DNA from: Euglena gracilis
Lineage: Eukaryota
Length of the DNA stretch: 64,000 bases
Direction: 5' to 3'
Assembly: GCA_039621445.1 (NCBI GenBank)
Contig: CP154954.1
Span: forward strand, 15,952,140-16,016,139
Below, in pieces: positions 29,288-60,100 of the stretch. The position numbers were made by a program, and so were the translations under genes. Within the stretch, counting starts at the first letter, position 1, and the number at the start of each line of letters is the position of its first letter. The notes under the pieces were generated by a model that had not been told where the DNA came from, made no database searches, and saw only the letters and a program-made list of their open reading frames with translations.

Positions 29288-29329
29288 ATGCCTGCCTGCC
29301 TGCCTGCCTGCCTGACTGCCTGCCTGCCT

Positions 29330-29382
<53 letters not shown>

Positions 29383-29827: not shown

Positions 29828-29907
<80 letters not shown>

Positions 29908-29987
29908 CCCGCCTGCCTGCCTGCCTGCCTGCCTGCCTGGATGGATAGATGGATGGATGGATGGATGGATGGATGGATGGATGGATG

Positions 29988-30980: not shown

Positions 30981-31089
30981 ATGGATGGATGGATGGATGG
31001 ATGGATGGATGGATGGATGGATGGATGGATGTGTGTGTATGTATGTTTGTCTGTTTGTATGTATGTATCTATGTATGCATGCATGTATG

Positions 31090-31121
<32 letters not shown>

Positions 31122-31838
31122 TGTATGTATGTATGTATGTATGTATGTATGTATGTAGTCTGTCTTATGTATGTCTGTCTGTCTTGTATGTATGTCTGTC
31201 TGTATGTATGTATGTATGTATGTATGTATGTATGTATTTATGTATGTTGGTATGTATGTATGTATGTATGTATGTATGTCTGTGTGTGTGTCTGTATCTA
31301 GGTCTGTGTATGTGTATGTATGTGTATGTATGTATGTCTGTGTATGTATGTCTATGTATGTATGTATGTGTGTATGTATGTATGTCTGTATGTATGTCTG
31401 TATATATGTGTCTGTATGGTATGTCTGTATGTGTATGTCTGTATGTATGTATGTCTGTATGTATGTCTGTATGTGTATGTCTGTATGTATGTCTTTGTGT
31501 GTTTGTATGTATGTATGTATGTATGTATGTATGCATGCATGTATGTATGTGTTTGTATGTGTTTGTATGTATGTATGTATATGTATGTATGTCTGTATGT
31601 ATCTGTATGTCTGTATGTCTGTATGTATGTATGTATGTCTGTCTGTATGTCGGTGTCTGTCTGTCTGTATGTCTGTCTGTCTGTCTGTATGTCTGTGTAT
31701 GTCTTTCTGTATGTATGTATGTTTGTCTGTTGTGTATGCAGTATGTATGTCTGTATGTCTGTCTGTATGTATGGTGTCTGTATGTATGTATGTATGTATG
31801 TATGTCTCTGTATGTATGTCTGTATGTATGTATGTATG

Positions 31839-31872
<34 letters not shown>

Positions 31873-33294: not shown

Positions 33295-33328
<34 letters not shown>

Positions 33329-33582
33329 TGTATGTATGTATGTATGTATGTATGTCTGTATGTATGTATGTATGTATGTATGTATGTATGTATGTATGTC
33401 TGTATGTCTGTATATCTATGTGTAGATCTGTGTATGTGTATGTATGTATGTTTGTATGTGTGTATGTATGTATGTATGTATGTATGTATGTATGTATGTA
33501 GTATTTATGTATGTATGTGTTTATGTATGTATGTATGTCTGTATGTCTGTATGTCTGTCTGTAGGTATATCTGTTATGGNNG

Positions 33583-33897
<315 letters not shown>

Positions 33898-33939
33898 ATG
33901 CCTGCCTGCCTGCCTGCCTGCCTGACTGCCTGCCTGCCT

Positions 33940-33992
<53 letters not shown>

Positions 33993-34456
33993 GATGGATG
34001 GATGGATGGATGGATGGATGGATGGATGGATGGATGGATGGATGGATGGATGTATGTATGTATGTATGTATGTATGTATGTATGTATGTATGTATGTATG
34101 TATGTATGTATGTATGTATGTATGTATGTATGTATGTATATAAGTATGCATGCATGCATGTATGTATGTATGTCTGTATGTATGTATGTATGTATGTATG
34201 TATGTATGTCTGTATGTATGTATGTATGTATGTATGTATGTATGTATGTATGTATGTATGTATGTATGTATGTATGTATGTATGTATGTATGTATGTATG
34301 TATGTATGTATGTATGTATGTATGTATGTATGTATGTATGTATGTATGTATGTATATATGTATGTATGTATGTATGCATGTATGTATGCATGCCTGCATG
34401 TATGTATGTATGTATGTATGTATGTATGTATGTATGTATGTATGTATGCATGCATG

Positions 34457-34532
<76 letters not shown>

Positions 34533-34768
34533 CCCGCCTGCCTGCCTGCCCTGCCTGGATGGATAGATGGATGGATGTATGGATGGATGGATGGATTGAT
34601 GGATGGATGGAATGGATGGATGGATGGATGGATTGATGGATGGATGTATGTGTGTGTCTGTATGTATGTATGTCTTTATGTCTGTTTGTATTTATGTTTG
34701 TCTGTCTGTCTGTATGTCTGTCTGTCTGTCTGTCTGTCGTCTGTCTGTCCTGTCTGTCTGTCTGTCTG

Positions 34769-34805
<37 letters not shown>

Positions 34806-36693
34806 CTGTCTGTCTCTCCTGTCTGTCTGTCTGTCTGTCTTGTATGTCTGTCTGTCTGTCTGTATGGCTGTCTGTATGTCTGTCTGTCTGTCTGTCTGTC
34901 TCCTGTTGTCTGTCTGTACTGCCTGTCTGTGTCTGTCTGTCTGTCTGTATGTCTGGTATGTCTGTCTGTCTGTCTGTGTCTGTCTGTCTGTATTTCGTCT
35001 GTCTGTTGTCTTCTGTCTGTCTGTCTGTCTGTATGATCTGTGTGTATGTCTGTATGTATGTCGTCTGTCTGTCTGTCTATCTGTCTGTGTATGTCTGTCT
35101 GTCTGTATTTATGTATGTCTGTATGTATGTATGTATGTATGTATGTATGTATGTATGTATGTATGTATGCATGTATGTATGTATGTATGGTATGTGTTTG
35201 TATGTATGTATGTATGTAGTATGTATGTATGTATGTATGTATGTATGTATGTAGTATGTATGTATGTATGTATGTATGTATGTATGTATGTATGTATGTA
35301 TGTATGTATGTATGTATGTATGTATGTATGTATGTATGTATGTATGTATGTATGTATGTATGTATGTATGTATGTATGTAGGTATGTATGTATGTATGAT
35401 GTATGTAATGTGTGTATTGTTGTTGAATTATGATGTAGGTGTGCATTTATGTATGTATGTGTATGTAGTATGTATGTATGTAGTACGATGATGTATGTAT
35501 TGTATGTATGTATGTATATGTAGTGTCTGTATGGTATGTTATGGATGTGTATGTATGTAGGTATGTATGTATGTCTGTATGTACCTGTATGTATGTGTAT
35601 GTATGTATGGTGGATGTATGTATGGTATGTATGTATGTATGTTATGATGCTGTATGTATGTATGTATGTAGAATGTATGTATGTGTATGTAGTAGTATGT
35701 ATGTATGTATGGTATGTATGTATGTATAGTAGATGGATGTACTGTATGTATGTATGGTATGATGTATGTATGGAGGTATGTATGTATGTATGTATGTATG
35801 TATGTATGTATGTATGTATGTATGTATGTATGTATGTATGTATGTAGTATGTATGTATGTATGTATGTATGTATATATGTCTGTATGTATGGTATGTATG
35901 TATGTATGTATGTATGTATGTATGTATGTATGTATGTATGTATGTATGTATGTATGTATGTATGTATGTTGTATGTATGTATGTATGTATGTCTGTCTGT
36001 CTATGTATGTATGTATTTATGTATGTATGTATGTATGTATGTATGTATGTATGTATGTATGTATGTATGTATGTATGTATGTATGTATGTATGTATGTAT
36101 GTATGTATGTATGTATGTATGCATGCATGCATGTATGTATGTTGTAGGTATGTATGAATGTAGATGTATGTATGTATGGGTGTCTGTGTGTGTATGTTAT
36201 GGCCTGCCTGCTGAGTGTATGTATGTATGCGTGCAGGTATGTATGTATGTATTTATGTAGGTAGTGATGTATGTATTATGTATGTAGTATGTATGTTATG
36301 TAGGTTGGATTAGGTATGGATGGATGGATGGATGGATGTATGTTGTTGGATGTCTGTCTATGTATTATGTATGTATGGATGGAGGATGTATGTAGCTAGT
36401 ATGGATGGAATGTATGTATGTATGTATGTATGTATGTATGTATGTATGTATGTATGTATGTATGTATGCATGTATGTATGTATGTACGTACGTATGTATG
36501 TATGTACGTAACGTATGTATGTATGTATGTATGTATGTATGTATGTATGTATGTATGTATGTATGTATGTATGTATGTATGTATGTATGTATGTATGTAT
36601 GTATGTATGTATGTATGTATAAGTATGCATGTATACACGTATGTATGTATTGTTTGTATGTATGTATGTATGTATGTATGTATGTATCTATTA

Positions 36694-36724
<31 letters not shown>

Positions 36725-36780
36725 TGTATGTATGTATGTATGTATGTATGTATGTATGTATGTATTTATGTATGTATGTA

Positions 36781-36811
<31 letters not shown>

Positions 36812-38610
36812 ATGTATGTATGTATGTATGTATGTATGTATGTATGTATGTATGTATGTATGTATGTATGTATGTATGTATGTATGTATGTATGTATGTA
36901 TGTATGTATGTATGTATGTATGTATGTATGTATGTATGTATGTATGTATGTATGTATGTATGTATGTATGTATGTATGTATGTATGTATGTATAATGTAT
37001 GTGTATGTATGTATGGATGTGTATGTATGTATGTATGTGTGTTTGTATGTATGTATGTGTATGTATGTATGTATGTATGTACGTCCGTATGTATGTACGT
37101 ACGTATGTATGTATGTATGTATGTATGTATGTATGTATGTATGTATGTATGTATGTATGTATGTATGTATGTATGTATGTATGTAGGATGTATGTATGTA
37201 TGTATGTATGTATGTATGTATGTGGGGATGCATGTGTGTGAGTATGTATGTATGTATGTATGTATGTATGTATGTATGTATGTATGTATGTATGTATGTA
37301 TGTAGGTATGTATAGGTATGTATGGATGTATGTATGTATGTATGTATGTTTGTATGTTTATGGATGTATGTATGTATGTATGTATATATGTTTGTATGTA
37401 TGTATGTGTGTCTGTATGTATGTATGTATGTATGTATGTATGTATGTATGTATGTATATATGTATTTATTTATATATATGTATATATATGTATGTATGTA
37501 TGTATATATATATATGTCTGTATGTATGTATGTATGTATGTATGTATGTATGTATGTATGTATGTATGTATGTATGTATGTATGTATGTATGCAGGTATA
37601 ATGTCTGTATGTATGTATGTATGTATGTATGGATGTATGTATGTATGTATGTATGTATGTATGTATGTATGTATGTATGTATGTATGTATGTATGTATGT
37701 ATGTAGGTATGTATGTATGTATGTATGTATGTATGTATGTATGTATGTATGTATGTATGTATGTATGTATGCATGTATGTATGTATGTACGTATGTATGT
37801 ATGTATGTATGTGTGCATGTATGTATTTTTTTTGTATGTATGTATGCATGTGTGTATGTATGTATGTATGTATGTATGTATGTAGATGTGTTGTATGTAT
37901 GTATGTATGTATGTATGTATGTATGTATGTATGTATGCCTGCATGCATGTATGTATGTATGTATGTATGTATGTATGTATGTATGTATGTATGTATGTAT
38001 GTATGTATGTATGTATGTATGTATGTATGTATTTATGTATGTAGGTATGTATGTATGTATGATGATGTGTGTATGTTGCATGTAGGTAGCATATTATGTA
38101 TGTAGTATGTATGTAGTATGTATGTATGTATCGTATGTATGTATGTAATATGTATGTAGTATGTATGTATATGTATGTATGTATGTGTGTATGTATGTAT
38201 GGTATGTATGTATGTTGATGATGTATGTATGTATGTTGTATGTATGTATGTATGATGTATGTTGTATGTATGCTGTATGTATGTATGTATGTATGTATGT
38301 ATGTATGTATGTATGTATGTAGTATGTAGTATGTATGTATGTATGATGTATTTATGTATGTATGTATGTATGTATGTATGTCTATGTATGTATGTATGTA
38401 TGTATGTTGTATGTATGTATGTAGTATGTATGTTGTATGTATGTTGTATGTATGTATGTATGTATGTATGTATGTATGTATGTATGTATGTATATGTATA
38501 TATGTGTATGTATGTATGTATGTGTGTGTATGTATGTATGTATGTATGTATGTATGTATGTATGTATGTATGTATGTATGTATGTATGTATGTATGTGTG
38601 TATATGTATG

Positions 38611-38642
<32 letters not shown>

Positions 38643-38744
38643 TGTATGTATGTATGTATGTATGTATGTATGTATGTATGTATGTATGTATGTATGTATG
38701 TATGTATGTATGTATGTATGTGTGTATGTGTGTATGTATGTATG

Positions 38745-41700
38745 AACACCCCGACGTCGTACCGCTTCAACGTCAGCGGGGTGGTGAACATCGTTCCTGC
38801 CAACTGTCAGGAAAGATATATGCATTTTTTCAACCCCCCCCATTGTCTGAAGCCACCGCAACGTAATTTGTTTTCACTTGCCCTGCTGAAGATCACTGTT
38901 GTCCATTTTCCAGTGCGCTCGGTTGCATTTGCGCCTAACCGATTTATTCATGTGCAATTTCTCAGCTGATGTTTTACAACCCCGTGCTGCTGCCCGTCAC
39001 ACACGGTGCAGACATATTCTGATATTATTTCTTCCTCACTGCAGCGTCTTTTAAGTCCAACCAATGACTAGTGTCCTGTTGGATGGGTTTCTCTTTATAT
39101 GTGTCCATTATACCCTCCAAAACGAGCTCAACGTTTTGGAAAAAATAAAATAATGCCATTTCTACCACAGCCAATCCAAGTCTTCGGAGTTGGTATGGTG
39201 TTCAGCTTTAACCTCGGCGCAGCTGGTGGGGTTACCATCTTTCCGAAACCTGGCGAAAGCGCTTTTCTTTGTGGAGAATGACAGAAACTTGAATGAGGAC
39301 CCGTTTTTCACTTGAGGTAAACATATCCCATGCGTACGTTGTCGCACTCTGTTTTTCAGCCATTTCAGCATTGCATCTCCAAATACCTGTTTTTCCTCGC
39401 AGAATGTCTGGGATTTCGCCATCTCAACCTTTCGTTATCCCAGCCAAAATAACTTTTTCTGTGCTGCAGCAGCTTTTTTGTTTGTGCAATGCACATTGCC
39501 AGCTTTTCATACCACAGGGGGAAAAAATCCTCTGCATTTACGTCCCCAAATACCTCGTCAATTTCTTCAATCAGCCAATTATTATTATTTTATAGTATTG
39601 GTCTGCGAACAAGTCGAACAGTTATGTCAGTACCGCTCGTGCATCCTTCATTTTCGCTTAATGTTTATATCCGTGCATTCCTACTCCAGCCCGATCCCGT
39701 CGTCTCCCCTGAGGCCACCCTAATTGTTTCCCTGCCTGTTTCCTTTGCAATGCCTGTTTCAGCATCCGTTTTCTTCCACCCTTGCTGCCTCATCCAACCC
39801 TGTAGCGTCCATGACCCTCTTCCCAGCCGTACCTGTTTCAGCACCAGCTGCCACCCCTCCCCTTCAGTTCCAGTCCATCCGTACCTGTCTCGGCATCAGC
39901 TGCCTCCCCCCCTCCAGTTCCACCCCATCAGTCTTCGGCCCAGCATCCGATGCCGAACCCCAATCACTCCCGTCACTCCGAAGGATCCTCCCCCTGGTCG
40001 TGTCCAGGTCCCTACATACCACCACCACCCTTGTGGCATGCCTCTCAGCAGCCGCTGCTTCCCGTCATCTATTTCCTCCAACCTGTCCGTTTCCCGTCCC
40101 ACGCAATCTGAACCGGTCATAGCCGAGCAAATGCCTTCTGGTGATTCGGTGTTCACAATTTCAGCCAGCACATCAGAGCTCGACACATTTCTGTAGGGCT
40201 GGATGGAAATTTCATATAAGTCAGTTCCGGGGGCACTCTCTGGACATCATCACATCTTATACCATTCTCCTGCCATCCGTGTGTTCTGATTTTTCCATTG
40301 CTCAATACATGTGTCTGCAATGCTCCATCCCCCTACAACAAACCAGGCGCCTCCGTGTCTTCTTCTCCAGCCGTGCCAGTGTCAGCTGCCCTCCCTCACC
40401 CTTCAATCAACCAGCCGAGTCCATGCCCCCTCCCTCGGCCGTACCTGTCTCAGCATCCGCTGCCTTCCTCCCTCTTCCTCAATCAGCCCAGACCATGTCC
40501 CCTTCCATGGCCAAGTCCGTGTCAGGAGCAGCTGCTTTCCTGCCGCTCCACACATCCACCCGGTTGTGTCCATGTCTTTTCCTCTGGTCAGGCCAAGTCG
40601 GCAACAACTGCCCTTCCTCTCCTCATCCAATGGGTTGTGTCCCTGTCCTCCATGCCAGTGTCAGTGTCAGTTCGCCAATCTTTTCCTCCAAATTGGCTCA
40701 TCCAACGCCCCCGTCAGCCTTGCTTTTCTATTCAGTGTCTGCGCCATACTTCGCATTGCAGCACAATATATCGCAGCCAGAATCAGCCCTGGAGTTTCAT
40801 GGTTCCCCCAGTGCCCTCCCCCCAATCAGTGTGGGATTAAGAAGGGATGATGGCCATCTAACATGAGTTATCGACCACGCTAATTTTATGCTGAACGTTG
40901 GTTGTCATAATGTTCATCGGATGCCCCTAGAAGTGTAAATAACACACATAAACACCTTTGCCAGATCACCAACCTCTCTAGCCCAGTTTGTCCAAAGCCC
41001 CCATGATTTAGCAACTGCAAAACTTGGTTCAGCACCAATCTGAGCAAAAAAGCCGATTATTGTGTACCATTAGGTATCATCCCTTTCCGCCGCATTCCCT
41101 ACCCCCCATTTTTTTTTTGTTCCCGGTGTGTAGCTTTAGTCGCACCTGCGGGCGGCAGGTCCAGTCTATATCTGCTCTGCAGCAGAAGATAACAATGTTC
41201 CCCACGTCCTCTGGATCCACCGTCGACCTGCCCTAGCTATGCTTGAATGTGTCGCAGTCATTTACCGGCAAAGGTGGGCATCCCCATCGCAACATGATAA
41301 CTAAGTGTGCAGGTGGTGAAGCTTCCTCTAAAACCTAGCGCTGAAGGTCCCATTTTTTGAGCAGTTTTGCAAAGGTCACTTTTTATCCCCTCCCGTGAAC
41401 CCCCATGTTCACAGGCGAGGAGAAGCCTATGCAAATTTTAGGAGTTGGATTTTGATGCACCATTTCCTGCGCTCCTCCCCCCCAGAAGTGGCTGAGTCAG
41501 CCATAGTCCCCACTCACCCCAACGTGGGAGGAGTGTTCTCTCTTTTCCATTGAATAATCCATGTGTCCCTCTGGCCTGCCAGGCCCAAGTCAGATACCCT
41601 CCCTCTCTCTCCGCAACAACCCAGCAGCCTCATAAATCCTTCCCCGGCCGTGCAATAGTCAACACCAGCTGCCCTCCCTCTCCTTTCAATCAATCAGCTG

Positions 41701-44700: not shown

Positions 44701-46938
44701 CCAGCATGCCGCAACGCCCACCCCTGCAGCTTCATGGTGCACCCGGCAGTCCTGCGCTCCAGGGTGCCGAGTGTGTTTCTGATTGGCCACACGTTCTTTT
44801 AGCTTTTCTCTGTCCCTGTCCGGCTGCCAGGGAGCTAACCTTGCCATCCATGTCCTCTCAACAGTGTCATGCACGAAGGGGATCCCATCCCTTTTGTCTC
44901 AACTAACAATTTACCACCTCTTTGTGCTTTTAGATTTTTGGCTCAATCCGGGCGGGCTGTTGCTGCAGAAGGCGGGATTGAAGGGGCGGTGGCACAGGAT
45001 GCCGACCGCTTTTACGTGCGGATTCCGGCCTCTTCATGGAATCAGCATGTTGCAGTAAACATTGGAATATTTCCCTTGGGTCAGGGTTTGATCGCTCACG
45101 AGGTCGGCCACTGGGCAGTACAGCATATTCTCTTAGGTTTATCTCCTGTTCATTCAGCAATTCTTTTTTTTTAATGCTCTCCTAGCATTATGCCATGGGG
45201 CACATCTATCCTCATGAATTTTAGTGGAGAAAAACCACATCCTCCAATCCGCCCAAATGATTTTTCCGGTGGAGACACACCACCCTCCAAACAGGATCAA
45301 GTCTGCTCGGAGTCTTCATGGCAGCATAATCATATTTGCCGCACCCGCCCTCCTGCTATCCCCGCCCATCATCCCACCAGCCGTACCTGTGTCTCCCCCA
45401 GTGTTGACCTCAGCCTCCCTTTCGTGACAATCCATCGGGTATCGAACCGTCATATCGTGGCTTTCTTTTTCCCCATCACGCCTCCTCCAACACGTGGTCT
45501 GGGGGTATTCCATCCTCCAGGACTTCCCCGCCCACCAGGATTTTGGTGGCACTCAAACAGTTTCGCCGCAGCTGGTGGCTTGGGTTTACAATCAGTTGCA
45601 ACTGAGAGCCAACACGCTTTCTGGTCCCCTGAGCCACTCCCATTGACACAAAGGGGTGCCTAGGACAGTGTATAAGCTTTTCTGTCCATTTAGGGTTAGC
45701 GGTACATCAACTTCTCCCTTCCCCTCTTTGTCTAGTGCATACATCCATCCCTGCAAGCCTGGGTACGGTTGGCTTTTCAAGACGTTACATTCCAAAAATG
45801 GCTCTCATGAGCGGCTTGGTTACCCCCTGCCGCCTGCTTTCCGTTCGTCCAACGGGAGGGTTTGTTGCACAGCAGTGTGTGAGTAGCCCTGTCAACCCCA
45901 TTTGAAATTTGAGGAAATTATTTGGGCACACTGATTAGAGCACTGTGCAGTCGCTTTATAAAAATGTCAGCGCATCAAACACCCAAATGTCTGTCTGGTA
46001 TGAGCGCCTTTTTGATACCCAGCTGACCTGACACACAATTAATTTGGGCAAGGCCAAAATGGGTTTTTTTTTGGTCAAAATCGCTTCAGAGCCCCGCCTT
46101 GCCTTGCGTGGTTCCATACTCATTTCACTTGCCAAGGCAGTGTGACCAAGCAAGTTTACCCTGCCCCAGTCGTTGATTGGCCACCCATTGAATGAGGGAG
46201 GGTCTACGCAGCCACCGATGGTTCAGAAATTGCTTGATTTGGACGGGCTTGCGGTGTAGACCACTCGGCGTTGTGCCTTGCATCCTCACCTCGTGGGGGT
46301 AGCGGAACGTTGCCTAAGATGCAGATGTTACAGAAAAATGGGCTGCAATTTATTGCAACGTTGCATGTAATTGCCCCGGTAAGAGCGGTTGAACGCTTGT
46401 GTACCGCTAGTTTCTCGAGTGCTGAGGGCTTTCCACGCCCTTTGCAAGGGCCATGTCCAGGTCTCCACTGGTTGCAGGGCCCCTCACATCATGCACATGC
46501 ACAGCCTGGGAAGCCGTCTTGGAAGAAAGCAATTAGTCAAGAGACTGTCATGCAGTTGCCGTGTGCATTTGGAATCACTTCATATGTTCTGCCCCCGCCT
46601 CGCTCTCTGCCCATCATGGTCCTGCACGGGGGAGGGGCACTCTGTCTCATCCGCGGCGCTGGGGGGATCCTGGACCAACGGCTCGCCCCGTCGCGGCAGC
46701 CTTGCTCCGGGCAGTTTGCCCAGCTCGCGTGGCAAGAATGAGGGGGGGGAACCCTGGCCCCGGCGCGGGGCCTGCCTTGGCGGGGACCCATCCATGGGTC
46801 TCCACTTGGCAGGGGTTGACGGCATCCATGTCCCTGCAGGCGGGGCCTGGTCGCCTCACTGCCATGGTGGACGGGGAGGGGCCACTCAGCGCATGCTGCG
46901 TGACCTCCCTGGCCTGGCCACCACACACACAAAAAAAA
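38745..46938 (-). mobile_element. Decayed Helitron-like element, copy 2, with internal duplication
   Basis: Same termini as copy 1 (caccccgacgtcgtaccgc... and ...cctggccaccacac(A)n). Remnants: GLPALSRMTIT (~43630), KLLGITRLERHREAQQNFSHDY (~43440), GQSGLGKLV (~42350), IVMTTAG, DEVFGDVN (~39550), TYAWDM (~39330). Confidence 0.68.
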
Positions 46939-48053
<1,115 letters not shown>

Positions 48054-49360
48054 TCAACATTTCTATGATATTTTAATGAAAAGAAGCCCTCTGTATTCTT
48101 GTGAATTCCAGATATCAATATTTTGGCTTTTTCCCCTCAAAAATATCTCCTAGTTGGAAAGGACAAAAAAATGAACATTATATGTAATGGATAAAATGTG
48201 CAAATTATTGAAGAATCGCCGAAATATCCAAGAATAGTTTTTTTGTTTAACATGAAACCCAATATACATTTTGTCCATCAAGTTTGTTTTTTTCTTGGTC
48301 AAAATTGTATTTTTTTTAAGCTGTCAGATATTTTTTTTTCTTGCCAATAATCGAATATGGTCGATGTTTTTCAAAAAAAATTTCCTTTTTTTTTCAGCAT
48401 GTATTTTTTACATTTAAAGGCCTAAATATGCTTGTAAAATCAGAGAAGAGAATTGATAATGAAAATAGTTAATTTGCACAAAACGGTAAAATTGCAAAAT
48501 TGTGCTTTTTGCCACACAAACCCTTTTGGAATCAAATGTTAAGTTAAGTTGTCTAAAATTATGTACCTCAATCGCAGTTTATTAAGTTTTTCTCCCAGAT
48601 GTGAAAAAAAAATGAAATATTTCCCTCGAAAATCAAATACTTGTCTAATAATTCAGGAAGCTTTTATTTTCAACGTTTTTAAACAGCAAAAGGGAGAAAA
48701 AGGAGCCAGAATAAAATATAATTTCTTCTATACATTTATTTGCAAGTTTTGAAAGTTATCGGTCATTTGTTTATGGGGCAAGGTAATGTGGGCGATGTTG
48801 GAAATTTTGTCTATAAATACCTTTTATGTTTCCCAATGTGTTTCCCTTTTTTTTTCCCTCCAAATTATATTGCCCCAACATATTTTTTTTTGTGTGCGAA
48901 AGTTTTGATTTGTCTGCATTTTGGTTTTTTATATTGTTTCTGAATTTTTCTTGATCCATCCGGGATGAAAATTAATGGAATGAGTGTTATAAGAACATGT
49001 ATTAAAAAAGAGGTTGTGTAATTTTGATGAAACAAATTTGTTTTTTTTGTGACGGGGAATTTGGAGGTTTTCCACCCTCTGAAGATAATATGACAGTTTC
49101 TCGAAAGAAAGCTGTGACAGTTTTTTTGCGAAGATAATTCAGAGTTCAAATTTTCATTGGTCGGTCCCATCCTTCTCCGGGCTTCTCATATATCCCTGAT
49201 CCGTGCTTGCAACTCTGGAATGCTTGGACCAGGCTCGTCTATTGGTTGCCGCACATTTTCACTATGTGGGTCGCCAGGTATCTGAAAGAAATGGATTAGA
49301 TTAATACTGACTTTTGTGAGGTGTCGGTGAATTCTCAAGAGCGTAACTAACTAAGAGTGT

Positions 49361-49584: not shown

Positions 49585-52358
49585 AGTAAGTTTTCATGTT
49601 TAAAATTTCAGGAACATTCCACTGTACAATGCAATAAACAATTTCTGTTTTGGTAGTTTATTTTTCAATACATGTTTGTGGTTGGGACTCTAAACCCCGT
49701 CCATTATGGTTTCGCATTGTTGGAAGCAAATCTAGTCCGTTGTGAAAGCTTACGACTCCTTCCATCGTTGCTGGGCAGTCATGGTTCCACCATTCAGTGA
49801 CCTCCGTCTTTGACTGTGGTCTTTGTTGTTGGTGAACAGTCAGTGATGGCGTGCCATTTGTTCCTGCTTGCTGCTTGCTGCTTGCCGAGCAGCCAGTTAA
49901 ATTGTCCTGCAGGCACAGCCCCAACTGCCTGCCCTGTTTTGTGGCTGACCCTTTTTGGAAAGGCTTGCCGTTCGACATTTGGAGGGTTGGCAAATGCGAT
50001 TTAGGCGAGTTTGTCGATGTTGCATTTAAGTTTTTTGGTAGCTAGAATGAAATACAAATGCGCTTTTTTGAAAAAAACCAGGAGGCTTCGAGAATTGCAT
50101 TTTTTTTTCGACAACATTAAAATGCTCCGGTCACACTAAAAAAATATTTGAAGAAAGTGCCGCGGGTCTAAGTCGACCTCATCCCAGTTCCATCAGCGCA
50201 GCCTTGACCGCCGAGTTTCTGCTTCCTTGGTGCAAGGTCCCAAGTGTCTTGTCGCTGTTCCTCATTATTCTCCGGGCATTTGATCTCTTTCTGGTCACTT
50301 GGTTTGCAGCTGTTCACAAATAAATATTTCCCCCCATTTTTTTCTTGGCATCATTTTTTGGCCTCTTGGGCTTTTTGTGCTCTTCAAGGGATTCCCACCA
50401 GGTTTTCACTGGGTATTACATTGCAACCGACCAGGTTCTATTGTCTGAGCTATCAAGGTGGTTATCCTTGGAGAACTGCCCCCCTTATAACAGAGAGACG
50501 AACATTTTCTTGAACATGTTTGGGGGTTTGGCTTTCCAGTGTGTCAATCTTGGGGTTCAGATAGGGTTAGGGTCGCTGAGCTCTTGTCCCTTTATGAGTA
50601 ACATCGAAGCTTTCCAGGGGAACCCCCCCCCCGACACCCCGCCTCTTGGGCTACATAATTAGAACCCCCGTTTCCCGGTATGAACTGCCTCCCTCCCCAG
50701 GGAGTTGTCTTTTAGGGAAGCCTCCCACATGGTCCCAGGAGCCCTTAAAGTAATCCCAATGATCCAGAAATAACTCCCCAGGGTAACCAAGTTGTCAAAA
50801 GGACTCCATGGGAGAACTCAAGCCATGAGCAACGCCCTATCTAGTGGTACCTGACTTTCCCAGTAACCCCACCGCTGGCCAAAGTTACGCCCCCGTTTTT
50901 TGACATGTTTTTTTTTTGGCCTTTTTGGCCCGTTTTTGGCCAAAATGGGCAAAAAAACACAATGTTCAAAATATTCTGAAAATAGAGCAAAGTGAAAGAA
51001 AATGTTTAAAGTATCAAATGAAACCCTGAGAACTCCCTATCTTCCCGTTACGCCCCACCTGGTTCGAGATATGACCATTTTTCGACCAATGTTGGGCTGT
51101 TTTTGGGCCAAAAATCACAAAATATCTCGAAAATGCCTCAAAATCAAACAAAAAGTCCAGGAGCTCTTGAAGCCTGAAAATGCCTCATCTAGCGGTATTT
51201 GATTTCCCCACTCGGAACTCCAAAACTGTGCTGCCGGCTTTCGACTCTTTTTGGGTCGACGACTTTTCCAAAATTGCTCAAAAATGGTGGGGAATCAAAA
51301 GAAATGTCTTCCCTCGCAACTCCCCCCCTCCGGGGCTGGGCCGGGCTGCCCGGTCGCCGGGCCTGACACGCCAGATTGGCCGGGTCAGGCCAGGTCGATG
51401 TGCAGCTGGGCCGACGACCGGGCATGTTGCTTTTGGACACAAAGTGCTCAGCACAATCAAAATCTGGCAACGGCGGGTGAACCCAAATTTAAAATGGAGT
51501 GCGTTTTTGTTATGCAACGTAATATAAATATTTCTTGACATTTGTCTTTGTTGGTCCTGATCTTTTGAAGTTTTGTTTGTGCTGGTTGGCAGGTTTCGCC
51601 CATCGCCCTTTTGGATGGGGTAGGGTTTTAAGTAGTGGTTTTGTGCATTGCAAAGTGGGCCCAGGGACCCCCCCTCTTAGGCGGCCTAATTCGCATTTAA
51701 GCTTTTAACTTTTTATTTGCGCACTTGCGCAAATCCCCGAGTTTTTTGATTCCGGCGGTGAAGGTCTGGGGGGCGAGGAGACACGCCGGCAAGCAAGGGC
51801 AAAAACGAAACAATTTTTTTGGTTTTGGCGGAGAGACCCCTGGGACTTTGGCCGAAAATGTGATTTTAAGAGGTGTCCAAATAAATTTGGGGGCCAAACC
51901 CCCGGGAACCTGCCCGCCCACACTGAAAAAAGTGAAAAAAAACACCCGGGGACCGGGACCCTGCCCGCCCCTGTGAGTGTGCGGAGCCTTTTTTGGGGAA
52001 GCAGTCTCGCCGGCAGTGTGTTCCCTCCCGGTGCCTCGGAGTGTGCGTGTGTGTGTGTATTTTGACCCTTGGGACTTGGTAATTTTTGATTGGTAAGGAA
52101 AGCAGGGGAAAGGGTGACAGGGCTTTGGAAGGGGTGCGGGTTGATGGGTACGGTGTGCAGGGGGTAGAGGGAGGGAGGAGGGGTCTAGGGTGCAGAGGTG
52201 TGATGGTGCAGAGGGTGTGCAGGGGTGATGTGCGGCAGGCAGGGCGGTGGGGTCAGACACCCGCAGTTGTCAGTGGGGGCTTGGTTTACAATACATATTG
52301 GCTTGTGTGCAACCCAGGACTTTGACCTTGGTGTTTTTGTGAAGCACCAAAACAGACG

Positions 52359-52606
52359 ATTGATGTTGATGCGCGCAATTGCGCAAATAAAACGTACGAT
52401 GGTGTGCGTGCCAGTGTGTGAGAGGGGTGCCAGTGGAAGAACCAGATGGTTGAAAGAGATGGGGATGTGCAGACCACACAGAAAAAAAAGAAACTAGACA
52501 AACAAACCCCCGGCGGGCGGTGATACGCTTGTCGCCCGGAGGAGGGGCCGCCCACCAAACAACAAAGTGTGTGTTTTACTTGCGCAATTGCGCACATCAA
52601 CATCAA
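52359..52606. repeat. ~35-bp inverted repeat pair centred on GCGCAATTGCGCA
   Basis: ttgatgttgatgcgcgcaattgcgcaaataaaac vs gttttacttgcgcaattgcgcacatcaacatcaa. Confidence 0.8.
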
Positions 52607-52812
52607 CAGGTTTTTTATTTATTTAAAACAAATAATTCTGAGAGGGGACATACCATAGCCGAGAGGGGACTGAGAGGGTGAAACACTTGTGACAGAAACA
52701 TTTGCGCAAATGCACGCATCAAAAGTGTTTTATAAAAAAAAGAAATGGTGGAAACAGAATGCAGAGGGGAAGAGAACGTAAAAAAAATTAGGAGACAGGC
52801 CCACAGCCAGTC

Positions 52813-53950
52813 TCACTTCTTGTGCTTGGAGAGCCGCTTGGCGAGGCTCTCCTAGGCGGCCGCCGGCTTGCCGCCAGGCTTCGGCAGCCCGCGGAGGACG
52901 GTGCTCCTGGGCGCCGCAGCCGGGGCGGTGCGTGGCGGTGGCGGTGGCGGGGCCTCCTCCTCTTCGGACTCCTCCTCGTCGAAACTCCGCCTCCTCCGGC
53001 GCTGGTGCTGCGGCCGCCGCTGCCTGCGACGCCGCTGCCTCCGCCGCCGCTGCTGCCTCCGACGCCACCCTGGCTGTGGCCCCCTCGATCACCGGCTTCA
53101 TCCCCGGGTACTTCTTGGGGTCCAGGAGGTGCCAGGACTTCGGGCCCTTGAGGGCTTCACCGGGTCCGGGTGGACGGATCAGCCCGGCCGCCTTCCACCG
53201 GGTGTCCTCCTTGCCTTTGCCCTTGCCCTTCCCCTTCCCCTCCCCCTTCTTCTCCTCCACCTTCTTCTCCTTCCCCTTCTGGGGCTCTGGCTTCCTGTAC
53301 CCGGGGGTGATCTCCTCGATGGTGTCCTCCTCCTCTTCCTCTTCTGCCTCCCCTGCTGGGACTGCGGGAGCTTCGCTGGCGACACCTCCGGAGTAGTCAC
53401 TGCAGCTGTCCTCCGCCTTTGGGTGCCGGCTGGGCTGGCCCGTCGGCGGCAGCACGATGACGGGGCTGGCCTCCTCAGCCTGGCTGCCGGGCGGGGTCAG
53501 CTCCGGGGTCTCCCGGCCGGGTGCGGTCATCTCCACGTCACTGTCCACCGCCTCGGCCTCCTCCCGTCGGGCCTTGGGGGGCGGGGGCCTGCTGGGCTTC
53601 TTCTCCGCCTCCTTCTTCCGCCGCTTCTTCTTCCGGTCACCCCCCTCCTTCTGGTGCTGCTCCAGCTTCTGCAGGCGGCGCTCCTCCTGCCGCAGCTTTG
53701 TCTGGCGGCGCCGCTTCTCAGACTCCTTCGACCTCCGCGCCGTCTCCTCAGCCGTTAGGCGGAGGTTGTCCTGGAGGGCGGCGTTCTCCAGGGGGACCCA
53801 CAGGGGGTCCCCCCCTTCCAGGGCGGCCAGCAGCAGCGGCAGCATGGCGGAGGTGACGGGCCGGGGCAGCGTCACCGTGTTGCCCACGGTCTGGGTGACG
53901 TCCTCCAGGCTGCTGGCGGAGTCCTCCGCCACCACCAGCACCAGCACATT
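52813..53950 (-). pseudogene. GC-rich coding segment: coiled-coil, K/R-rich NLS-like and acidic low-complexity tail (probably the 3' part of the ParB-like gene)
   Basis: Long ORF with strong GC3 bias. A +1 frameshift near 52982 restores EFDEEESEEEEAPPPP, and there is an in-frame TAG near 52853. No clear acceptor upstream. Confidence 0.6.
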
Positions 53951-54266
53951 TGCAGCAATTGCGCAAATAAAACAGGACACTGTCATTCAATGCATCGGCA
54001 GACTGGCAGTGGGCTCACACCTGGGGGACCGACCGGTCCCAGCCGGCCTGCCGGTAGGCCGCCGCCAGCCGCACCGCCGGCACCGTGGAGATGTGCTTCC
54101 CCTTCACCAGGAGGTTGGCGAACTGGGGGATGGACAGCTCCTTCACTGCCAACTGGATGGCCTGCGCGTACCCGCCGGCAGCCCGTCGCAGGTGCACCGG
54201 GGTCATGGGGTGGAGGATGGTGGTGAGGTCGTATTTGCCCTGGCCACAGCCCTGCATTTGAACCTA

Positions 54267-54683
54267 AACCCCCCCCCAAATATAAAACCCCCCGGTTTTA
54301 TAATTGGGCGGAAATTGGGCGGCAAGACCCCGAGGGGGGGTTTTATATTTGGGGGGGGGGTTATATTCGGTCAGAAAAATCAACTTCCCGGTGGGCTCCA
54401 GTAAACACTTTTTTGGTCCAAAATAACAAATACGCCCACCCTTGGGGGTCCAAAAACTTCATTTTTCGGGCGAAGGAGCAATTTTCACATGTTTTTGGTA
54501 AAAATTGTTCCCAAATCTGCCAAAATGACAATTTTGGGAGATATTTTGTCGAAATTTTTTCCTTCCGGCGCTTCGCGCCGGAGGGGGGGTTTTATATTTG
54601 GGCGGGATTTCAAGGTCCTCAGGGGGGGTTTTATATTTGGGGGGGGGTTTGTATTTGGGGGGGGGTTATATTTGGGGGGGGTT
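54267..54683. mobile_element. TA-flanked MITE with AAATATAAAACCC repeats, related in structure to 8063-8522
   Basis: TIR AACCCCCCCCCAAATATAA / TTATATTTGGGGGGGGTT; TA at 54265-54266 and 54684-54685; contains CGGCGCTTCGCGCC. Confidence 0.85.
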
Positions 54684-54699
54684 TATGTCTTTCAGACAC

Positions 54700-54778
54700 A
54701 GGAGGGGCTGCATGAGAGGGGCTGCACGAGAGGGGCGGCACGAGAGGGGCTGCACGAGAGGGGCTGCACGAGAGGGGC
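54700..54778. repeat. 14-bp minisatellite GAGAGGGGCTGCAC, ~5 copies
   Basis: Direct reading. Confidence 0.85.
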
Positions 54779-56321
54779 AAAACAAAAAACACACAACCAA
54801 ATACAGGGCTGAACCCTTCGGAGGGTTCAGCTTCTGGGACCTGAAGCCCTCGGACCAGCGCTTCAGCGCCGCGGTGATGTGCTGCCCCGACATCAGCACG
54901 TAGTGGTTCTCTGTGGGGACAATGAAGGGATGTGCGCGCAATTGCGCAAATAAACAAACTGTATGCGTATGTGCGCGCAAATGCACAAATAAACACATTA
55001 TGCATGGACGTGCGCACAAATGAGCCAGTAAAAAGGGATTGTGTGCTTGTGCGCGCAAATGCGCAAATCAAATCCGACTTCCAAAGCAATGCACGCACTC
55101 CAATGCTGAACCCTGCACACCAACAGAGTTTCCAGAGGCAAACTCATTCCAGACAAACCACCCCACAACCGCAAACACCCACGTATGACGCAATCACACT
55201 GATAGACACACCGGCCTTCTTCCACACGGTGACCCGCACCATCTCCAGCGGGGGGTTCAGCTGCAGCTGCCGCAGCTTCCGCTCCACCTCCGTGTTGTCC
55301 AGGGGCCGCGTCTGCCCCTCGGACTGGTTGTAGTCCACGTGCAGCACGTCCAGCTTTGTCCCCGTCGACAGCACCCACTGCTTCACCTCCTCCTTGTACA
55401 CCTCCGCGATGGGCAGGTTGCGGGAGGTACTGCGGGGGCGGATCCGCCCCGGCTTGGCGGCGGGCTTCGGCTCCTGCGCTGCAGCGGCCTCAGCTGGGGC
55501 GGGCTCCGCTCCAGCCTCCGCCGCCTCGGTCCCGGACTCCGCCTGCCCGGGGACGGCAGCCTCCCCCTCTGGGGGGACATCAACAGGGTCGGCCATGGTG
55601 TGTGACCTGAGGCAAGGCGCCGTTTCAAAAAGGGGGGGAATGTGACCAGTGACTGAACTGCACGTGCAACAACTGAATTCAGCACATTGAAATGCCTTCT
55701 AACCTACGGCAAGCAATCCGCGCAAATTATGACAAAAAATCATCCGACTTAGGCATTTTCAGGCAAAAAATGGAAAAAGTGTGAAACGTTCTGACGGGAC
55801 GCACAAAATGGATTATTCTGGTCCGTAACAACGGGGGGTATGGATATGCTACGTTTTCGTAATCTTTCACGGCGTATATGTGTCAAAAACTGCCGAACAC
55901 AAACCGGGGGTGACACGTCACGCATTCGGGTCGTGAAACAGTTAACACACTGGCGGTTTACTGTTGGACATCCGTAGGCCTGCTTTTTTGGAAATCCAGA
56001 AGGTGTCTAGAGGGGAGCTGTCAACTTTTTTCTTTTGGCGAACATGCACCTGGTTATGGCGCATCGAATGATCCATAAAATAAAGTGTGGTGTGGCTTGT
56101 ATCAAAAGTTACTAAACCGTCGCCTCATCAGCAAATCCGCTCAGTCGGACCCCTCGAAGGGGTCCGCCGGGACGTACACACGAGCCGCCCTTGGCGGCAC
56201 CGTGTCCCGACTGCTGGTGGCCGCCCCACGCCCTGCGGGGTCCGCCGGTACCCGCCCGCCCGCCCGCGGAGGTGACTCGTCGCCCGCTGGTGATTCGAAT
56301 CGCGACCGTCGAGTCGGTCGC

Positions 56322-57117
56322 TCAGGCAGGGACCCCTCGGACGAGGACTCGGCAGCCACGGACAACGGCAGATTCGCGGTGCGCCTCCAGCGGGCGTGCG
56401 CTGATCTCCGAGACCAGCTCCAGGAACGCCGGCAGGTCGCTCCGCACCAGCCGTGCGGACACCCGGTGGATGCGGCCCAGCAGCTGCTCCAGCGACGGGT
56501 ACCCCAGGTACTCCGGGATGGCGTCCACCGCCGTCCGCATCGGGGTTCGACGTCATGGCCCTCTTCCAGAAGTTGTCGAACCACAGGACGCAGCTCCGCC
56601 CCTCCGACTGCTGCCACAGGTCCTCCAGCCGCTAACAGGCCCGCTGCCGCCGCCACTGCCGGTTCCACATCGGCTCCTTCGGCAGGATCCCACTGGGCCG
56701 CAGCAGCCGGCTGGCCGCCCGGTGCCTGGCCAGCAGCGCCTCGTGCTCCTCCGCCACCACCCGCTGCGCCGACCGCGGGCAGGCGTGCTGCCGCAGCGCC
56801 CGGTACACCGCCCAGGCGTCCTTGAGCAGCAGCTCAATCCGCGGCCGCCGCGGCTCCCGGGCCAGCTCCTCCAGCAGCGCCGCGCCCCCCTCCGTCCGCA
56901 GCGGCACCCGGGTGTGGGCCACCTGCACCACCAGGGTCTGCAGCGGGTGGCCGCGCTGCACCACCGCCGCCACAAACTCCTCGTAGCTGGTGGCGAAGTG
57001 GGCCTTCACCAGCTGGCCCAGCACCTTCCTGGCCTCCGCGGCCAAGGCGGCCTCCTCGCTGTAGCCCTCGTAGCCACGGCGGCGGGAGTGGGTGCTGCTG
57101 GCCTGCAAGGACTCCAT
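56322..57117 (-). pseudogene. Decayed 'WFDNFWK' gene (putative Academ-like transposase N-terminal part)
   Basis: MESLQ...KVLGQLVKAHFATSYEEFVA...ELLLKDAWAVYRALRQHACPRSAQRVVAEE...PSGILPKEPMWNRQW...C*RLEDLWQQSEGRSCVLWFDNFWK (56563-56583), then a frameshift to AIPEYLGYPSLEQLL. High GC3. Confidence 0.62.
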
Positions 57118-60100
57118 TCAGTCCTCCCCAGGTCTGCCGGCACGCCGCCTTTTCGCCACCACCTCAAATCTGTTAACTTCACACCCCCGTTGTCGCCACC
57201 CTGTCCACATCACTCATACAGACACATTACACGCTACACGTCCCACAATCCTGTGTGTCATTTCTTTTATTTGGAACTGTTTGTGCGCGCAAAATGCGCA
57301 AGTCAACAAACAAAAAAGCACACATTAATACACCGCTGTACCCTGCCTGGCCATCCCCCATGTACGTCAACTCCAGACAGGGGACACCGGCCATACACCA
57401 CCATAGAGCCTTAGCCACCCAGCACGTAACACACACACACTCTCAAATGGTGAGCAGCGTAGCTTCCCATGGGTCATAGCGTCTCCACCAGCCATACAAA
57501 TCACACCCCCACTGACACAACGAGTGAATGACAACGTGCAGGTCAATAGACTGGCAGCACAACGCCCCCTGGGTCGTTAAACAACCACTTTTCATTTCTG
57601 ACACAATCTGGGGCGTCAACCACCCTCTCAGCAGCACAGTCAATCACAGTAGGAATAATCGTTTGATGCGCGCATTTGCGCAAGTGTGCAGTGCACCACA
57701 AACAAAATTTATTCCGTACACCAATTAGAAAGTTCCAATCACCAGGCATTTCTTCTCCCTTGTCCAAAACAGGGGTGTCACACCCCTCTCCAGACACACC
57801 CAATTCCATTGTAATTCATAAGACATGGCACCCAACACACCATCACAATAATTTCGAAATTCATCAAGGGTGTCTGATTTCATCGCCCGGCAAACGTTCA
57901 GTATCCACAGGTCACATTTGGACACCCAAAAGTCAAAAACCGTACGCCGTCAGATCTGGCCAGTTGGGTGCCGCGGGGTGGTGTGGGGTGGAAGAGGGTG
58001 TCGGCGGGTGTCCCACGGACAGTGTGCAGACAACCATCTGCGGAGAGGGAGGTACAAATGTTCGCGCGCCCGTTTGTATTTGAAGGGGTTCGAATTGCCC
58101 AGCCCTAACGAGTTCTGTCCGCGACCACAAAAATTTCTTTTTGGCAGGCAGGGTACAGGGTCCCAGGGGTTACAAAAAAATGGTTACATTTGCGCAAATG
58201 CGCCCATCCTAAAGGGAAAACCCTTAAGTGCGAATTCGGCTGCCTAAGCCCCGGCCCAGAACCCAAAATTGTCATTGTTAAAAAAAAATAATGTGAAATG
58301 CAATTTTTTTTGGCCCCCCAATTTTTCTGGCGCTTTGAGCAGAAAAAAAATTGTTTGTTCGGGGGAGGGGGGTCCTGACTATACCATTGCTTAAGGTTTG
58401 TCTGACCCCCAGGGGGGTGATTGGCTGGTTTTTTAGGAGTGGTTTTTGGCTCCAGACGCCCCCCCCCCCCCGGGAGGTTGGCCACGAATGCTCGAAAGTG
58501 GCCACCCGGCGCGGAAGCCACGGGAATTTTTTTTGAAGTTTCTGGCCTTTTCGGCCCGAGTGCCCCTGTGTGCACTGTGTCTTTTTGTTTGGTGCCTTTT
58601 ATCCCTTCTTCTGTTCCCTTCTTCTGGCTGTTTTTCGCCTCTGAACCTTTTGTCTGTGTACGTGGAGGTGGCCGGAGCCTGGCGGGACTTACCTTTTGTT
58701 TACTTCTATGTCCCACCCTTAAAACACTCAAACCCGCCGCAGTTCAGCCACTTTCATCTCACCCAAGCTCTTGGGGGACACTGTGGTGGCATGGTGGATG
58801 GAGACCCTTGATGGCAGGTGCGTCCAAAAATCCAACAGACATGGAGGGAAGGTGATCGATCGGCAGCCTTCAAAACACCTTCACAAACTTCCCCCCAAAT
58901 AATATACCCCGCCCCTGGCCTGCGATTTCAGCTGCCCAAATAATGTACCCCCAGCCACACTCCTTGATAGAAATCAAGCAAAGCGGAAACTCATCAAATT
59001 CCCTCTGAAAAAAGCATATTTTAAAATTATGCTTGGTACAACAAACCTACCAAGGCCCTACTGGTGCGACCCTCGCCCAATGAAACCCCTCCCCCAAATG
59101 GTATACCTGGTGGTGTTTTATTATACAGGTATCCAAAACTTGGGCCCAGGGTGGGTACTTGAGTCGGGGGGGTGTATTATTGGGGAAATTCTTCAAGCTC
59201 AAAAAGACACCCAGAGTTCCCCTTTTCACATAATATCTGGACTTTTCATATTTCTCCTTTTATTTTACGTGATCTACCACTTGGAACCTGGCGATGCATC
59301 ATGCATCATGCGCCGAAAACCTGGTGCCTGATGGCTGCCCCCTCCCTCCTGATGTACACGTCTCGGGACAGGTGATGCATTGGTCCATTGGGTCCATGTG
59401 CTTTTCCCCCAAGGGCAGGTCGGTCAATGGGGCAGTGTATTTTTTTTAAGGACTGCCCCATTATGGACCGTCTTAGGACTAAGGACCTGCCAATGGCCGG
59501 TCTGGGGTTGAACAGGGTTGAAAATGAAAAATTATGAAATAAAAAACCGCATTTTTTTGACTTTTTGGGTGGATGAGCGATGGCCTTTCTTCAATGGGAA
59601 TGAAAACTTCAGATTATCACCATGACCCCTGCCCCGTTCCCAAAAATTTTTCCCAATTGCGAGCGATTGAATCCCGGCTTTCTGAACTACTTCTGGTTGG
59701 CCCCTAACTCCCACCAGGCCCGAGGTATTCAGCCAACAAGGGGTGCAAACTGGGTAGGATTCGCCACCCCCCCCTCTGGTATTCAACAAACAAAGGAGGA
59801 GGCAAACAATTCCATCTTCGTGTGTTGTCCCTCCTTGGTTGCATTTTAGTATAGAGAATGATGTGCTGGAAGAGGTTCGTTATATGCATTTGCCGCTTCC
59901 CTGCCCTGCTTTTTTTGTTATTGTGGCTGCCTGTTCCAAAGCCAAGGCGGTTCTTCCCCACTCATCTAATATCAAAAAGTGACATATTTGAACCGGGTCT
60001 GTTCGCCTGGGAGCCATTGGGGATGAACCTTGTTTTACCCTCAGGGGACTCCACATCCTGGGGCACCAAATCCATCACGCATTTATTATTATTATTTTTT

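Follow-up and report, generated by a model that had tools for sequence, protein, structure and literature searches.

In the 64,000-nucleotide (nt) stretch of the Euglena gracilis genome analysed here (contig CP154954.1 of assembly GCA_039621445.1, positions 15,952,140 to 16,016,139; hereafter the window, whose own numbering is used throughout), we identified a real eukaryotic gene composed of several exons. It lies on the minus strand, from about 55596 to 52852, and its exons 1-3 encode a divergent domain of the ParB/sulfiredoxin (Srx) fold followed by a helical region. An earlier sequence-only reading had placed an intron-containing domain at 54815-55596, an extent that proved too short because the gene runs on to about 52852. 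The parts of the gene are as follows (GC3, GC content at third codon positions):

55212..55596, minus strand: exon 1, open from its ATG at 55596 down to 55212; GC3 0.90.
54911..55211, minus strand: intron 1, 301 nt, GT-AG, phase 1.
54795..54910, minus strand: exon 2, encoding the strand and helix that complete the domain, including the motif YVLMSGQHITAAL (with YVLMSGQHI); GC3 0.87.
54021..54263, minus strand: exon 3, encoding the post-domain helical region (TPVHLRR..., then helices); GC3 0.91.
52852..53923, minus strand: probable exon 4, with a putative acceptor gcggag/ at 53924 (here and below, a slash within a splice site marks the cut), encoding a low-complexity K/E/R/P-rich tail with basic clusters.

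In the product of exon 1, an acidic, Ala- and Pro-rich N-terminus is followed by a short patch of basic residues and then by the first half of the ParB/Srx-like domain, whose landmarks follow in the order LHVDY, an invariant G-Q-x-R, a helix, NPP and a VTVW strand. The donor of intron 1 is G/GTGTGT (GT at 55211-55210) and its acceptor is ...ccccacag/ (AG at 54912-54911), the codon split between the two exons being G/AG (Glu); inside the intron lie a 39-nt tandem repeat (54928-55022) and, at 54942, a copy of the palindrome TTGCGCAA. The translation spliced across it reads GQTRPLD...NPP...VRVTVW...YVLMSGQHITAAL and contains exactly the peptide string that had been proposed from the sequence alone. 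The in-frame, 301-nt, phase-1 GT-AG intron claimed at the same time is likewise upheld by the exact sequence, the canonical sites, contiguous relatives and collinear profile matches.

A key question is whether the frames on both sides of intron 1 belong to one gene. In tblastn searches, residues 80-127 of the relative P0013 aligned to exon 1 and residues 128-158 to exon 2, and residues 143-200 and 201-232 of the relative P0019 aligned in the same way, both queries being contiguous across the intron. A hidden Markov model (HMM) was built from the five long relatives introduced below, with the window sequence excluded, and run over all 1799 stop-to-stop open reading frame (ORF) pieces of the window. 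The three top-scoring pieces were exon 1 (E 4.4e-16), piece 54018-54263, which corresponds to exon 3 (E 0.05), and exon 2 (E 0.053). Their matches are collinear on the model (positions 30-152 for exon 1, 152-180 for exon 2 and 193-227 for exon 3), and an origin as a chance ORF was therefore rejected. Spliced candidates joining exons 1, 2 and 3 scored 74-89 bits (E 8.5e-24 to 2.5e-28), compared with 56 bits for exon 1 alone.

The relatives themselves also bear the trace of this splice site. In the family alignment (A1), 11 of the 12 short relatives, the exception being P0007, diverge directly past a Gly that has V, I or A as its next residue, which is what a phase-1 G/GT(G/A) donor yields when it is read through in translation; the read-through of exon 1 in the window shows the same pattern (KKAGVS...). 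The five longer relatives are uninterrupted at this position and continue as ...Y-I/L-L/M-S/A-G-Q-H... Thus, it is on homology and canonical splice sites, and not on transcripts, that we regard intron 1 as real.

Downstream of intron 1, three candidate 3' ends of exon 2 fit the frame of exon 3, namely 54810, which uses a GC donor, and 54798 or 54795, which use GT donors; the first gives the top HMM score and the closest match in length to the relatives, and the GTGTGT at the GT-donor option is similar to the donors of introns 1 and 3. The end at 54815 (AAGG/GT, phase 1) that had been suggested earlier does not hold, as no frame-compatible AG acceptor leads from it into the next homologous exon. 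For exon 3, the candidate acceptors are 54263, 54251 and 54239, each in phase 0, and the donor is CAG/GTGTGA at 54020. All five long relatives leave the alignment at the end of exon 3 with a ...P-V-C read-through and a GTGTG-type donor and, judged from sequence, the position of intron 3 is common to them and the window gene.

Exon 4 is probably joined to exon 3, and no homologue spans it. Its GC3 is 0.8-0.94 in frame down to ~53090 and drops beyond; near 53000 (~53000-53010, in a GC-rich, Ala/Glu-rich part) the coding-like frame moves by one base, and the stop of the shifted frame lies at 52852-52854. This one-base change is either an assembly indel or a true frameshift. Within the 64-kb window, tblastn detected no second copy of the ParB-like domain.

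Relatives of the gene were sought with the product of exon 1 (P0001), for which phmmer returned 15 hits at E <= 1e-3 among 1.84 billion representatives; the best was 84% identical (P0002), and the hits formed 15 clusters at 50% identity. Twelve matches are short ORF-level predictions in which the match ends just past the VW strand, while the longer relatives are P0011, P0013, P0017, P0018 and P0019. P0004, a 751-amino-acid tandem-repeat protein with nine weak stretches, was excluded from all alignments as a probable repeat artefact. Alignment A1 comprises 18 sequences, and both phmmer and word-index searches gave only short, unnamed ORF-level predictions; a profile search for near members with A1 retrieved only five members that were already known. 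None of the 18 members of A1 matched any Pfam family of the ParB clan at E <= 10, Pfam searches with the exon pieces and four long relatives gave nothing relevant, including no match to PF02195, and hmmsearch with the A1 profile against PDB sequences gave low-complexity matches only. Two profile scans of viral contigs and a metagenome profile scan with a separate alignment (A3) yielded no family locus, tblastn with P0013 found no match in a phage collection, and Rfam had 0 matches in the whole window. The gene therefore belongs to a small family that is missed by standard domain databases.

Evidence on the fold was obtained from an AlphaFold2 model of the relative P0013, computed with the 18-row alignment; the product of the window gene aligns to the modelled region. 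The predicted local distance difference test (pLDDT) score of this model is 85-96 (10-residue block means) over residues 71-180. Against the PDB, Foldseek gave 26 matches at E <= 1e-3, and all those listed are of the ParB/Srx type: Noc and ParB (both at E 3e-5), PadC, Srx, SbnI and 1vk1, the last of which we presume to belong to this type; SerK and KorB sit just above the cut-off. VIA-align against 48,161 chains gave eight with Z >= 5, all ParB/Srx-type: PadC (9.4, the alignment covering model residues 68-228), KorB (8.3), Srx (8.0), SerK (7.9), pNOB8 ParB (7.6), Atu1540 (7.1), a second Srx entry (7.0) and SbnI (6.8). The next chains below were SspE (4.9) and BrxU (4.3), with the first unrelated chain at 3.6 and the Dnd complex entry 9jfl at 3.0. 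Since a best Z of 7-8 is common for unmatched models, values of 7-9 stand modestly above the VIA-align background, and this result draws its weight from the agreement among these eight chains rather than from Z alone.

Searches of other types point in the same direction. Of the 50 BFVD hits listed, 28 bear ParB, Spo0J, partition, Srx or DndB-like names and a further three are methylases; an uncharacterised giant-virus protein ranks first. The family profile aligned by hhalign to a Pfam-verified ParB_N protein with a probability of 89% (E 2.3e-6, 66 columns, 36% identity), and P0013 matched PHROG 1033 ('ParB-like partition protein') at E 0.009. In the Atlas, neighbouring clusters carry PF02195 in 15-19% of their members and the best match (0.96) is an unnamed eukaryotic cluster; this neighbourhood is treated as a lead only. 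Taken together, the P0013 model with its structural matches and the profile alignment support membership in the ParB/Srx fold superfamily, as the sequence-only reading had proposed. Its narrower label of a DndB/DGQHR domain was not borne out: there is no Pfam match, and the structural matches to compact ParB_N/Srx proteins (Z 6.8-9.4) are better than those to DUF262/Dnd proteins (3.0-4.9). Assignment to the DUF262/GmrSD proteins was rejected because of these weaker structural matches and the absence of the second domain.

The conserved residues of the family are concentrated in two motifs. Four residues are the same in all 18 sequences of A1, namely the G, Q and R of G-Q-x-R and, in NPP, the second P. 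The first P of NPP and the strand Trp are near-invariant; hhalign pairs the Arg of G-Q-x-R with an Arg of the ParB_N protein, and we take this motif to be the counterpart of the ParB-type QPR-like Arg motif before helix 1. At the second motif, the window and three of the five long relatives read SGQH, one reads AGQH and one TMQH, so that GQH is found in the window and in 4/5; the question raised earlier, whether SGQH is conserved in relatives, thus has a largely positive answer. In the superfamily, the GxxR motif takes the form GERR in ParB, GCHR in Srx and GQHR in DndB. Because hhalign places the SGQHV of P0013 on the AGAHR of the ParB_N protein, the Ile of the window (S-G-Q-H-I) falls at the GxxR arginine, a position that is occupied by Val or Leu in four long relatives and by Arg only in P0011. 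This agrees with the earlier statement that the D and R of a DGQHR-type motif are replaced here by S and I. After the domain, a dipeptide reads E-N in P0018 and P0019, D-N in P0013 and P0017, F-Q in P0011 and Y-A in the window; the D/E-N pair may represent ParB box III (E-N-x-x-R, Mg/CTP hydrolysis; CTP, cytidine triphosphate). The product is thus predicted to have a ParB-like fold without the key nucleotide-contacting arginine, and the strict conservation of the other motif residues suggests that the site in this family would be remodelled but used, not dead.

What might such a protein do? The protein would be nuclear, as suggested by clusters of basic residues that precede the domain and recur in the tail; a tail resembling a nuclear localization signal had been noted earlier and such clusters do exist, although exon 4 and the part of exon 1 ahead of the domain encode them, and they do not form a tail within 54815-55596. 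The ParB-like fold and the helices that follow it could form a DNA- or chromatin-associated, ligand-binding or self-associating module in which CTP or other nucleoside triphosphate (NTP) hydrolysis of the ParB type would be absent, and the family would derive from orphan, mobile-element-type ParB-like proteins and not from sulfiredoxin. This mechanism as a whole, that is, a nuclear DNA/chromatin-associated module without ParB-type hydrolysis and with mobile-element ParB descent, is tentative, and we place its chances somewhat short of even. The best explanation overall is a real multi-exon ParB/Srx-fold gene with a presumed role as a nuclear module, to which we assign a probability of about 0.6.

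Several points weigh against this explanation. The fold was modelled on P0013, which is 31% identical to exon 1 in A1 (40% over a 48-residue tblastn match), and not on the window product; exon 1 of the window folded alone reached a pLDDT of 60, too low for use in a fold search, and the Z values are modest, as said above. The D/E-N dipeptide of four long relatives is Y-A in the window. The exon 2/3 junction has several candidate ends, no single one of which is fixed, exon 4 carries a frame change, and the architecture past exon 3 rests on a single locus, a search for longer (fused or full-length) relatives having found none. The transcript data belong here as well. Reads joining 55211 to 54911, called for as a check of the intron, were looked for in four runs, of which X15 and X17 are contigs with an uncertain RNA label and X21 and X24 are raw RNA reads sampled at ~5-6%, and no such read was seen at the listing threshold. 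Most aligned RNA reads are only 90-95% alike, which indicates that they stem from related copies, and reads that are at least 99% alike number 3/97 in X24 and 1/38 in X21. Two contigs (X15 record 7 and X17 record 13) are unspliced over the donor of intron 1.

The surroundings of the gene contain the following further features:

54266..54684, no strand: insertion in intron 2 resembling a miniature inverted-repeat transposable element (MITE), ~420 bp, with perfect 28-nt terminal inverted repeats.
54702-54778: 14-nt tandem repeat in intron 2, adjoining the MITE-like insertion.
56373..57117, minus strand: upstream neighbour, an unannotated GC3-rich gene fragment with the motif VLWFDNFWK and a frame break after the motif.
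2347-4555, plus strand: paralogue of this neighbour, with matching blocks up to 2622 and then from 4183.
2186, 4756, 51725, 52379, 52580, 52702, 53959 (intron 3), 54942 (intron 1), 57676 and 58190: occurrences of the palindrome TTGCGCAA.

The terminal repeats of the MITE-like insertion consist of C9/G9 runs and AAATATAAAA. The insertion is of very high copy number, with a contig word depth of 1400-2900 whereas the bins of the exons have 6-210 (mostly tens), and it is missing from related contigs, which jump from 54264 to 54686, 54701 or 54716. The upstream neighbour is considered as context only, with no established link to the ParB-like gene. It belongs to a VLW(F/Y)DNFWK gene family whose two window copies are 44-67% identical (protein, matching blocks); it matched no Pfam family at the curated cut-off, the only hit being PF15878 Frey (E 0.003, 18.5 vs 28.3 bits), and an Atlas search with its paralogue was uninformative (best score 0.77). 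Between the matching blocks of the paralogue, at 2692-3315, lies a remnant resembling a Tc1/mariner transposase (DDE_3, weak, E 0.031), an assignment for which we rely on what we take to be SPDLNPI-like and C-terminal motifs on opposite-strand ORFs. Coding-like GC3 occurs at three sites in the window, namely the ParB-like gene, its upstream neighbour and the neighbour's paralogue; outside these units the window consists of microsatellite and other repeats. Strand-asymmetric microsatellite or satellite tracts with TGTA/TGCA, GGAT and CCTG-type units extend over ~10600-18500, 25300-38900 and 46500-48100, with a GC skew of up to 0.85, a GC content down to 28% and long artefactual ORFs in all frames.

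All ten occurrences of TTGCGCAA in the window lie beside the GC3-rich gene units (51715-58199, plus 2186 and 4756). The palindrome often takes the form ATTTGCGCAAAT, within a longer GATGCGCGCAATTGCGCAAATAAA-like unit, and it stands 30-45 nt upstream of the acceptors of introns 1 and 3; TGCGCAAAT has 11 hits in the window compared with 0.4 expected. The same palindromic motif is encoded where P0008, which is 28% identical to exon 1, reads through into the intron, and a similar one in the read-through of P0005. The palindrome may be a motif that introns or genes of this organism carry generally, it may be an introner-like element, or it may serve these genes as a binding site. If the last were the case, the protein could be a eukaryotic ParB-like sequence-specific DNA binder with ATTTGCGCAAAT-type palindromes as parS-like sites, i.e., a self-recognising nuclear module, mobile or domesticated; having given up the GxxR arginine, such a module would not carry out ParB-type CTP hydrolysis. 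We regard this extension as improbable at present.

Another important question is whether the locus could be a decaying, non-functional copy of the family, a possibility that is compatible with either origin of the gene. This copy may be decaying, as suggested by the frame change of exon 4 near 53000 and by the exon 2 end preferred by homology, which lacks a canonical GT donor fitting exon 3, so that the best model uses a GC donor while GT-donor models insert ~6 residues relative to the homologues. Moreover, Y-A in the window stands against E-N or D-N in four long relatives, and the Trp that these relatives conserve after exon 2 is missing from the window; at 54170, all aligned contigs and the eight covering X24 reads differ from the window, with Asp instead of Tyr by codon reading. 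The low counts of RNA reads at least 99% alike (3/97 and 1/38) are of the same tenor. However, exons 1-3 are open with a GC3 of 0.87-0.91, and exon 1 is 84% identical to P0002, with 8/69 changes in the domain compared with 13/59 in the disordered N-terminus (hand count on the tblastn alignment). The frame change also lies in a GC-rich low-complexity tract, in which assembly indels would be common, and the raw-read runs were sampled at only ~5-6%. On balance, we consider decay unlikely, though it fares best among the alternatives to a real gene encoding a nuclear module.

Somewhat less likely still is that a large DNA transposon carries this gene as an accessory gene, the gene product being a ParB-like binder of the repeats of its own element, as in algal transposons. 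The family is multi-copy (the 15 clusters at 50% identity), four distinct contigs share the same exon 2 variants in each of two runs, and the gene adjoins a multi-copy gene whose window paralogue overlaps the weak Tc1/mariner-like transposase remnant. Coding-like GC3 is limited to these units in a 64-kb repeat-rich window, the palindrome TTGCGCAA occurs only around them, and the excess of TGCGCAAAT fits the same picture; precedents are found in the descriptions of Ectocarpus Sola1 (PMC12477816) and red-algal Plavaka PAG3 (bioRxiv 10.1101/2025.02.11.637652). On the other hand, Pfam and the Atlas show no transposase domain in the neighbour or at other sites near the gene, the unit was found to have no bounding terminal repeats, a lone 26-nt inverted pair (52698/57662) consisting of the dispersed palindromic motif, and Pfam finds no fused enzyme domain in the exon pieces. 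A ParB-like partner is lacking at the neighbour's other copy (2.3-4.6 kb), and the intron positions are common to relatives only 26-38% identical, which fits long vertical descent.

Could the protein instead be an active NTP (CTP)-dependent sliding clamp of the ParB type with a parS-like site of its own? The ParB fold is followed by helices where ParB has its helix-turn-helix (HTH), the PadC alignment extending over model residues 68-228, and G-Q-x-R is invariant. E-N in P0018 and P0019 and D-N in P0013 and P0017 occur at the site that possibly equals ParB box III, and palindromes cluster round the gene. Nevertheless, the window and 4/5 long relatives have no arginine at the GxxR position, the window has no E-N pair, the scanned window ORFs contain neither a ParA-like partner nor any other Pfam family, and the same palindrome also flanks the paralogue of the unrelated neighbour. 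We therefore hold such a clamp to be quite improbable. Least probable of all, with chances close to nil, is an enzyme resembling sulfiredoxin or a serine kinase (Srx, SerK or SbnI type): these proteins are among the best structural matches (Z 6.8-8.0), but Gln takes the place of the catalytic Cys of Srx (GCHR) in the window and all five long relatives, for which reason sulfiredoxin was rejected, the family has extra helical and disordered regions while Srx is single-domain, and no Pfam or PDB sequence match to these enzymes was found.

With the reading as a real gene for a ParB/Srx-fold nuclear module retained, the family can be compared with known systems. Phages and mobile elements have orphan ParB_N (PF02195) proteins that are like the window family in fold, as well as in size and layout, with the domain first and helices after it; for one example (L001:1382-2176), the hhalign similarity to the family extends over strand, helix, strand and the G-x-H motif. 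In contrast to them, the window family fails the Pfam model and lacks the GxxR arginine, and the window gene has spliceosomal introns, a disordered N-terminus and a long K/E-rich tail. This example is the one bacterial locus found in a metagenome scan (with a further alignment, A4), and its ORF passes Pfam ParB_N (E 1.2e-7, 32.1 bits compared with a cut-off of 26.3). The contig L001 is a bacterial one with 70% GC, on which the ParB_N gene (1382-2176) stands after an HTH regulator-like ORF (801-1385). By our reading of the translations, the ORFs downstream resemble Mu-type early/transposase genes, and the gene would then be a ParB-like gene of a transposable prophage.

The CTP-binding proteins chromosomal ParB, Noc, KorB and PadC are the best structural matches to the P0013 model, and the Arg motif before helix 1 is kept as G-Q-x-R. 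They differ from the window family in that the Arg of the GERR type is replaced by Ile, Val or Leu and the E-N pair is missing in the window; moreover, the window gene is eukaryotic and intron-bearing, and no ParA was found in the scanned window ORFs. As for the features of a ParABS system, helices follow the domain in the P0013 model with no HTH family matched, and palindromes are near but not gene-specific. DndB/DGQHR and DUF262 proteins (GmrSD, BrxU, SspE) belong to the same superfamily, and the G-Q-H letters agree with DGQHR, whereas the window lacks the D and R of that motif, has no Pfam match and gives weaker structural matches (SspE 4.9, BrxU 4.3, Dnd 3.0). Sulfiredoxin is eukaryotic and has the same fold (Z 7.0-8.0) and a G-x-H motif, as in the window family, which in turn has Gln for the catalytic Cys, lacks the following Arg and is multi-domain; sulfiredoxin is a single conserved gene, whereas the window family is lineage-restricted and expanded.

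According to a 2025 survey of the ParB-CTPase fold, EukProt was searched with PF02195 at the gathering cut-off, and sulfiredoxin was the most common eukaryotic representative (PMC12704722). Since 0/18 members of the present family match PF02195, surveys of this kind would miss it. A narrow literature search found no stand-alone, intron-bearing eukaryotic ParB-fold family with SGQH, although the supplementary tables of PMC12704722 and of the bioRxiv preprint may bear on this. The family shows that at least one eukaryotic lineage has stand-alone, intron-bearing ParB-fold proteins with a presumably remodelled nucleotide pocket. Were the locus no more than a transposon accessory gene copy in decay, the finding would matter for annotation only.

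The closest eukaryotic parallels are offered by accessory proteins of algal transposons. The Sola1 transposon of Ectocarpus encodes an accessory protein with ParB-like and methyltransferase parts (PMC12477816), red-algal Plavaka PAG3 combines an N-terminal ParB domain with a 2-oxoglutarate oxygenase and has adjacent inverted-repeat arrays (bioRxiv 10.1101/2025.02.11.637652), and chlorophytes and chytrids have ParB-HTH proteins joined to Dam methyltransferases (PMC4738411). Like the window gene, the algal transposon accessory proteins are eukaryotic, intron-era and multi-copy, with an N-terminal ParB-like domain and dyad-symmetry repeats nearby. Unlike these proteins, which are compared here from their descriptions, the window gene has no fused enzyme domain in the Pfam scan, although further exons may have gone undetected, and neither a transposase nor element boundaries were found at it. 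Should DNA or nucleotide binding by the window protein hold true, ParB-type biology would extend to eukaryotic nuclei or eukaryotic mobile elements, where the present family would take its place beside the algal fusions of ParB domains with enzymes.

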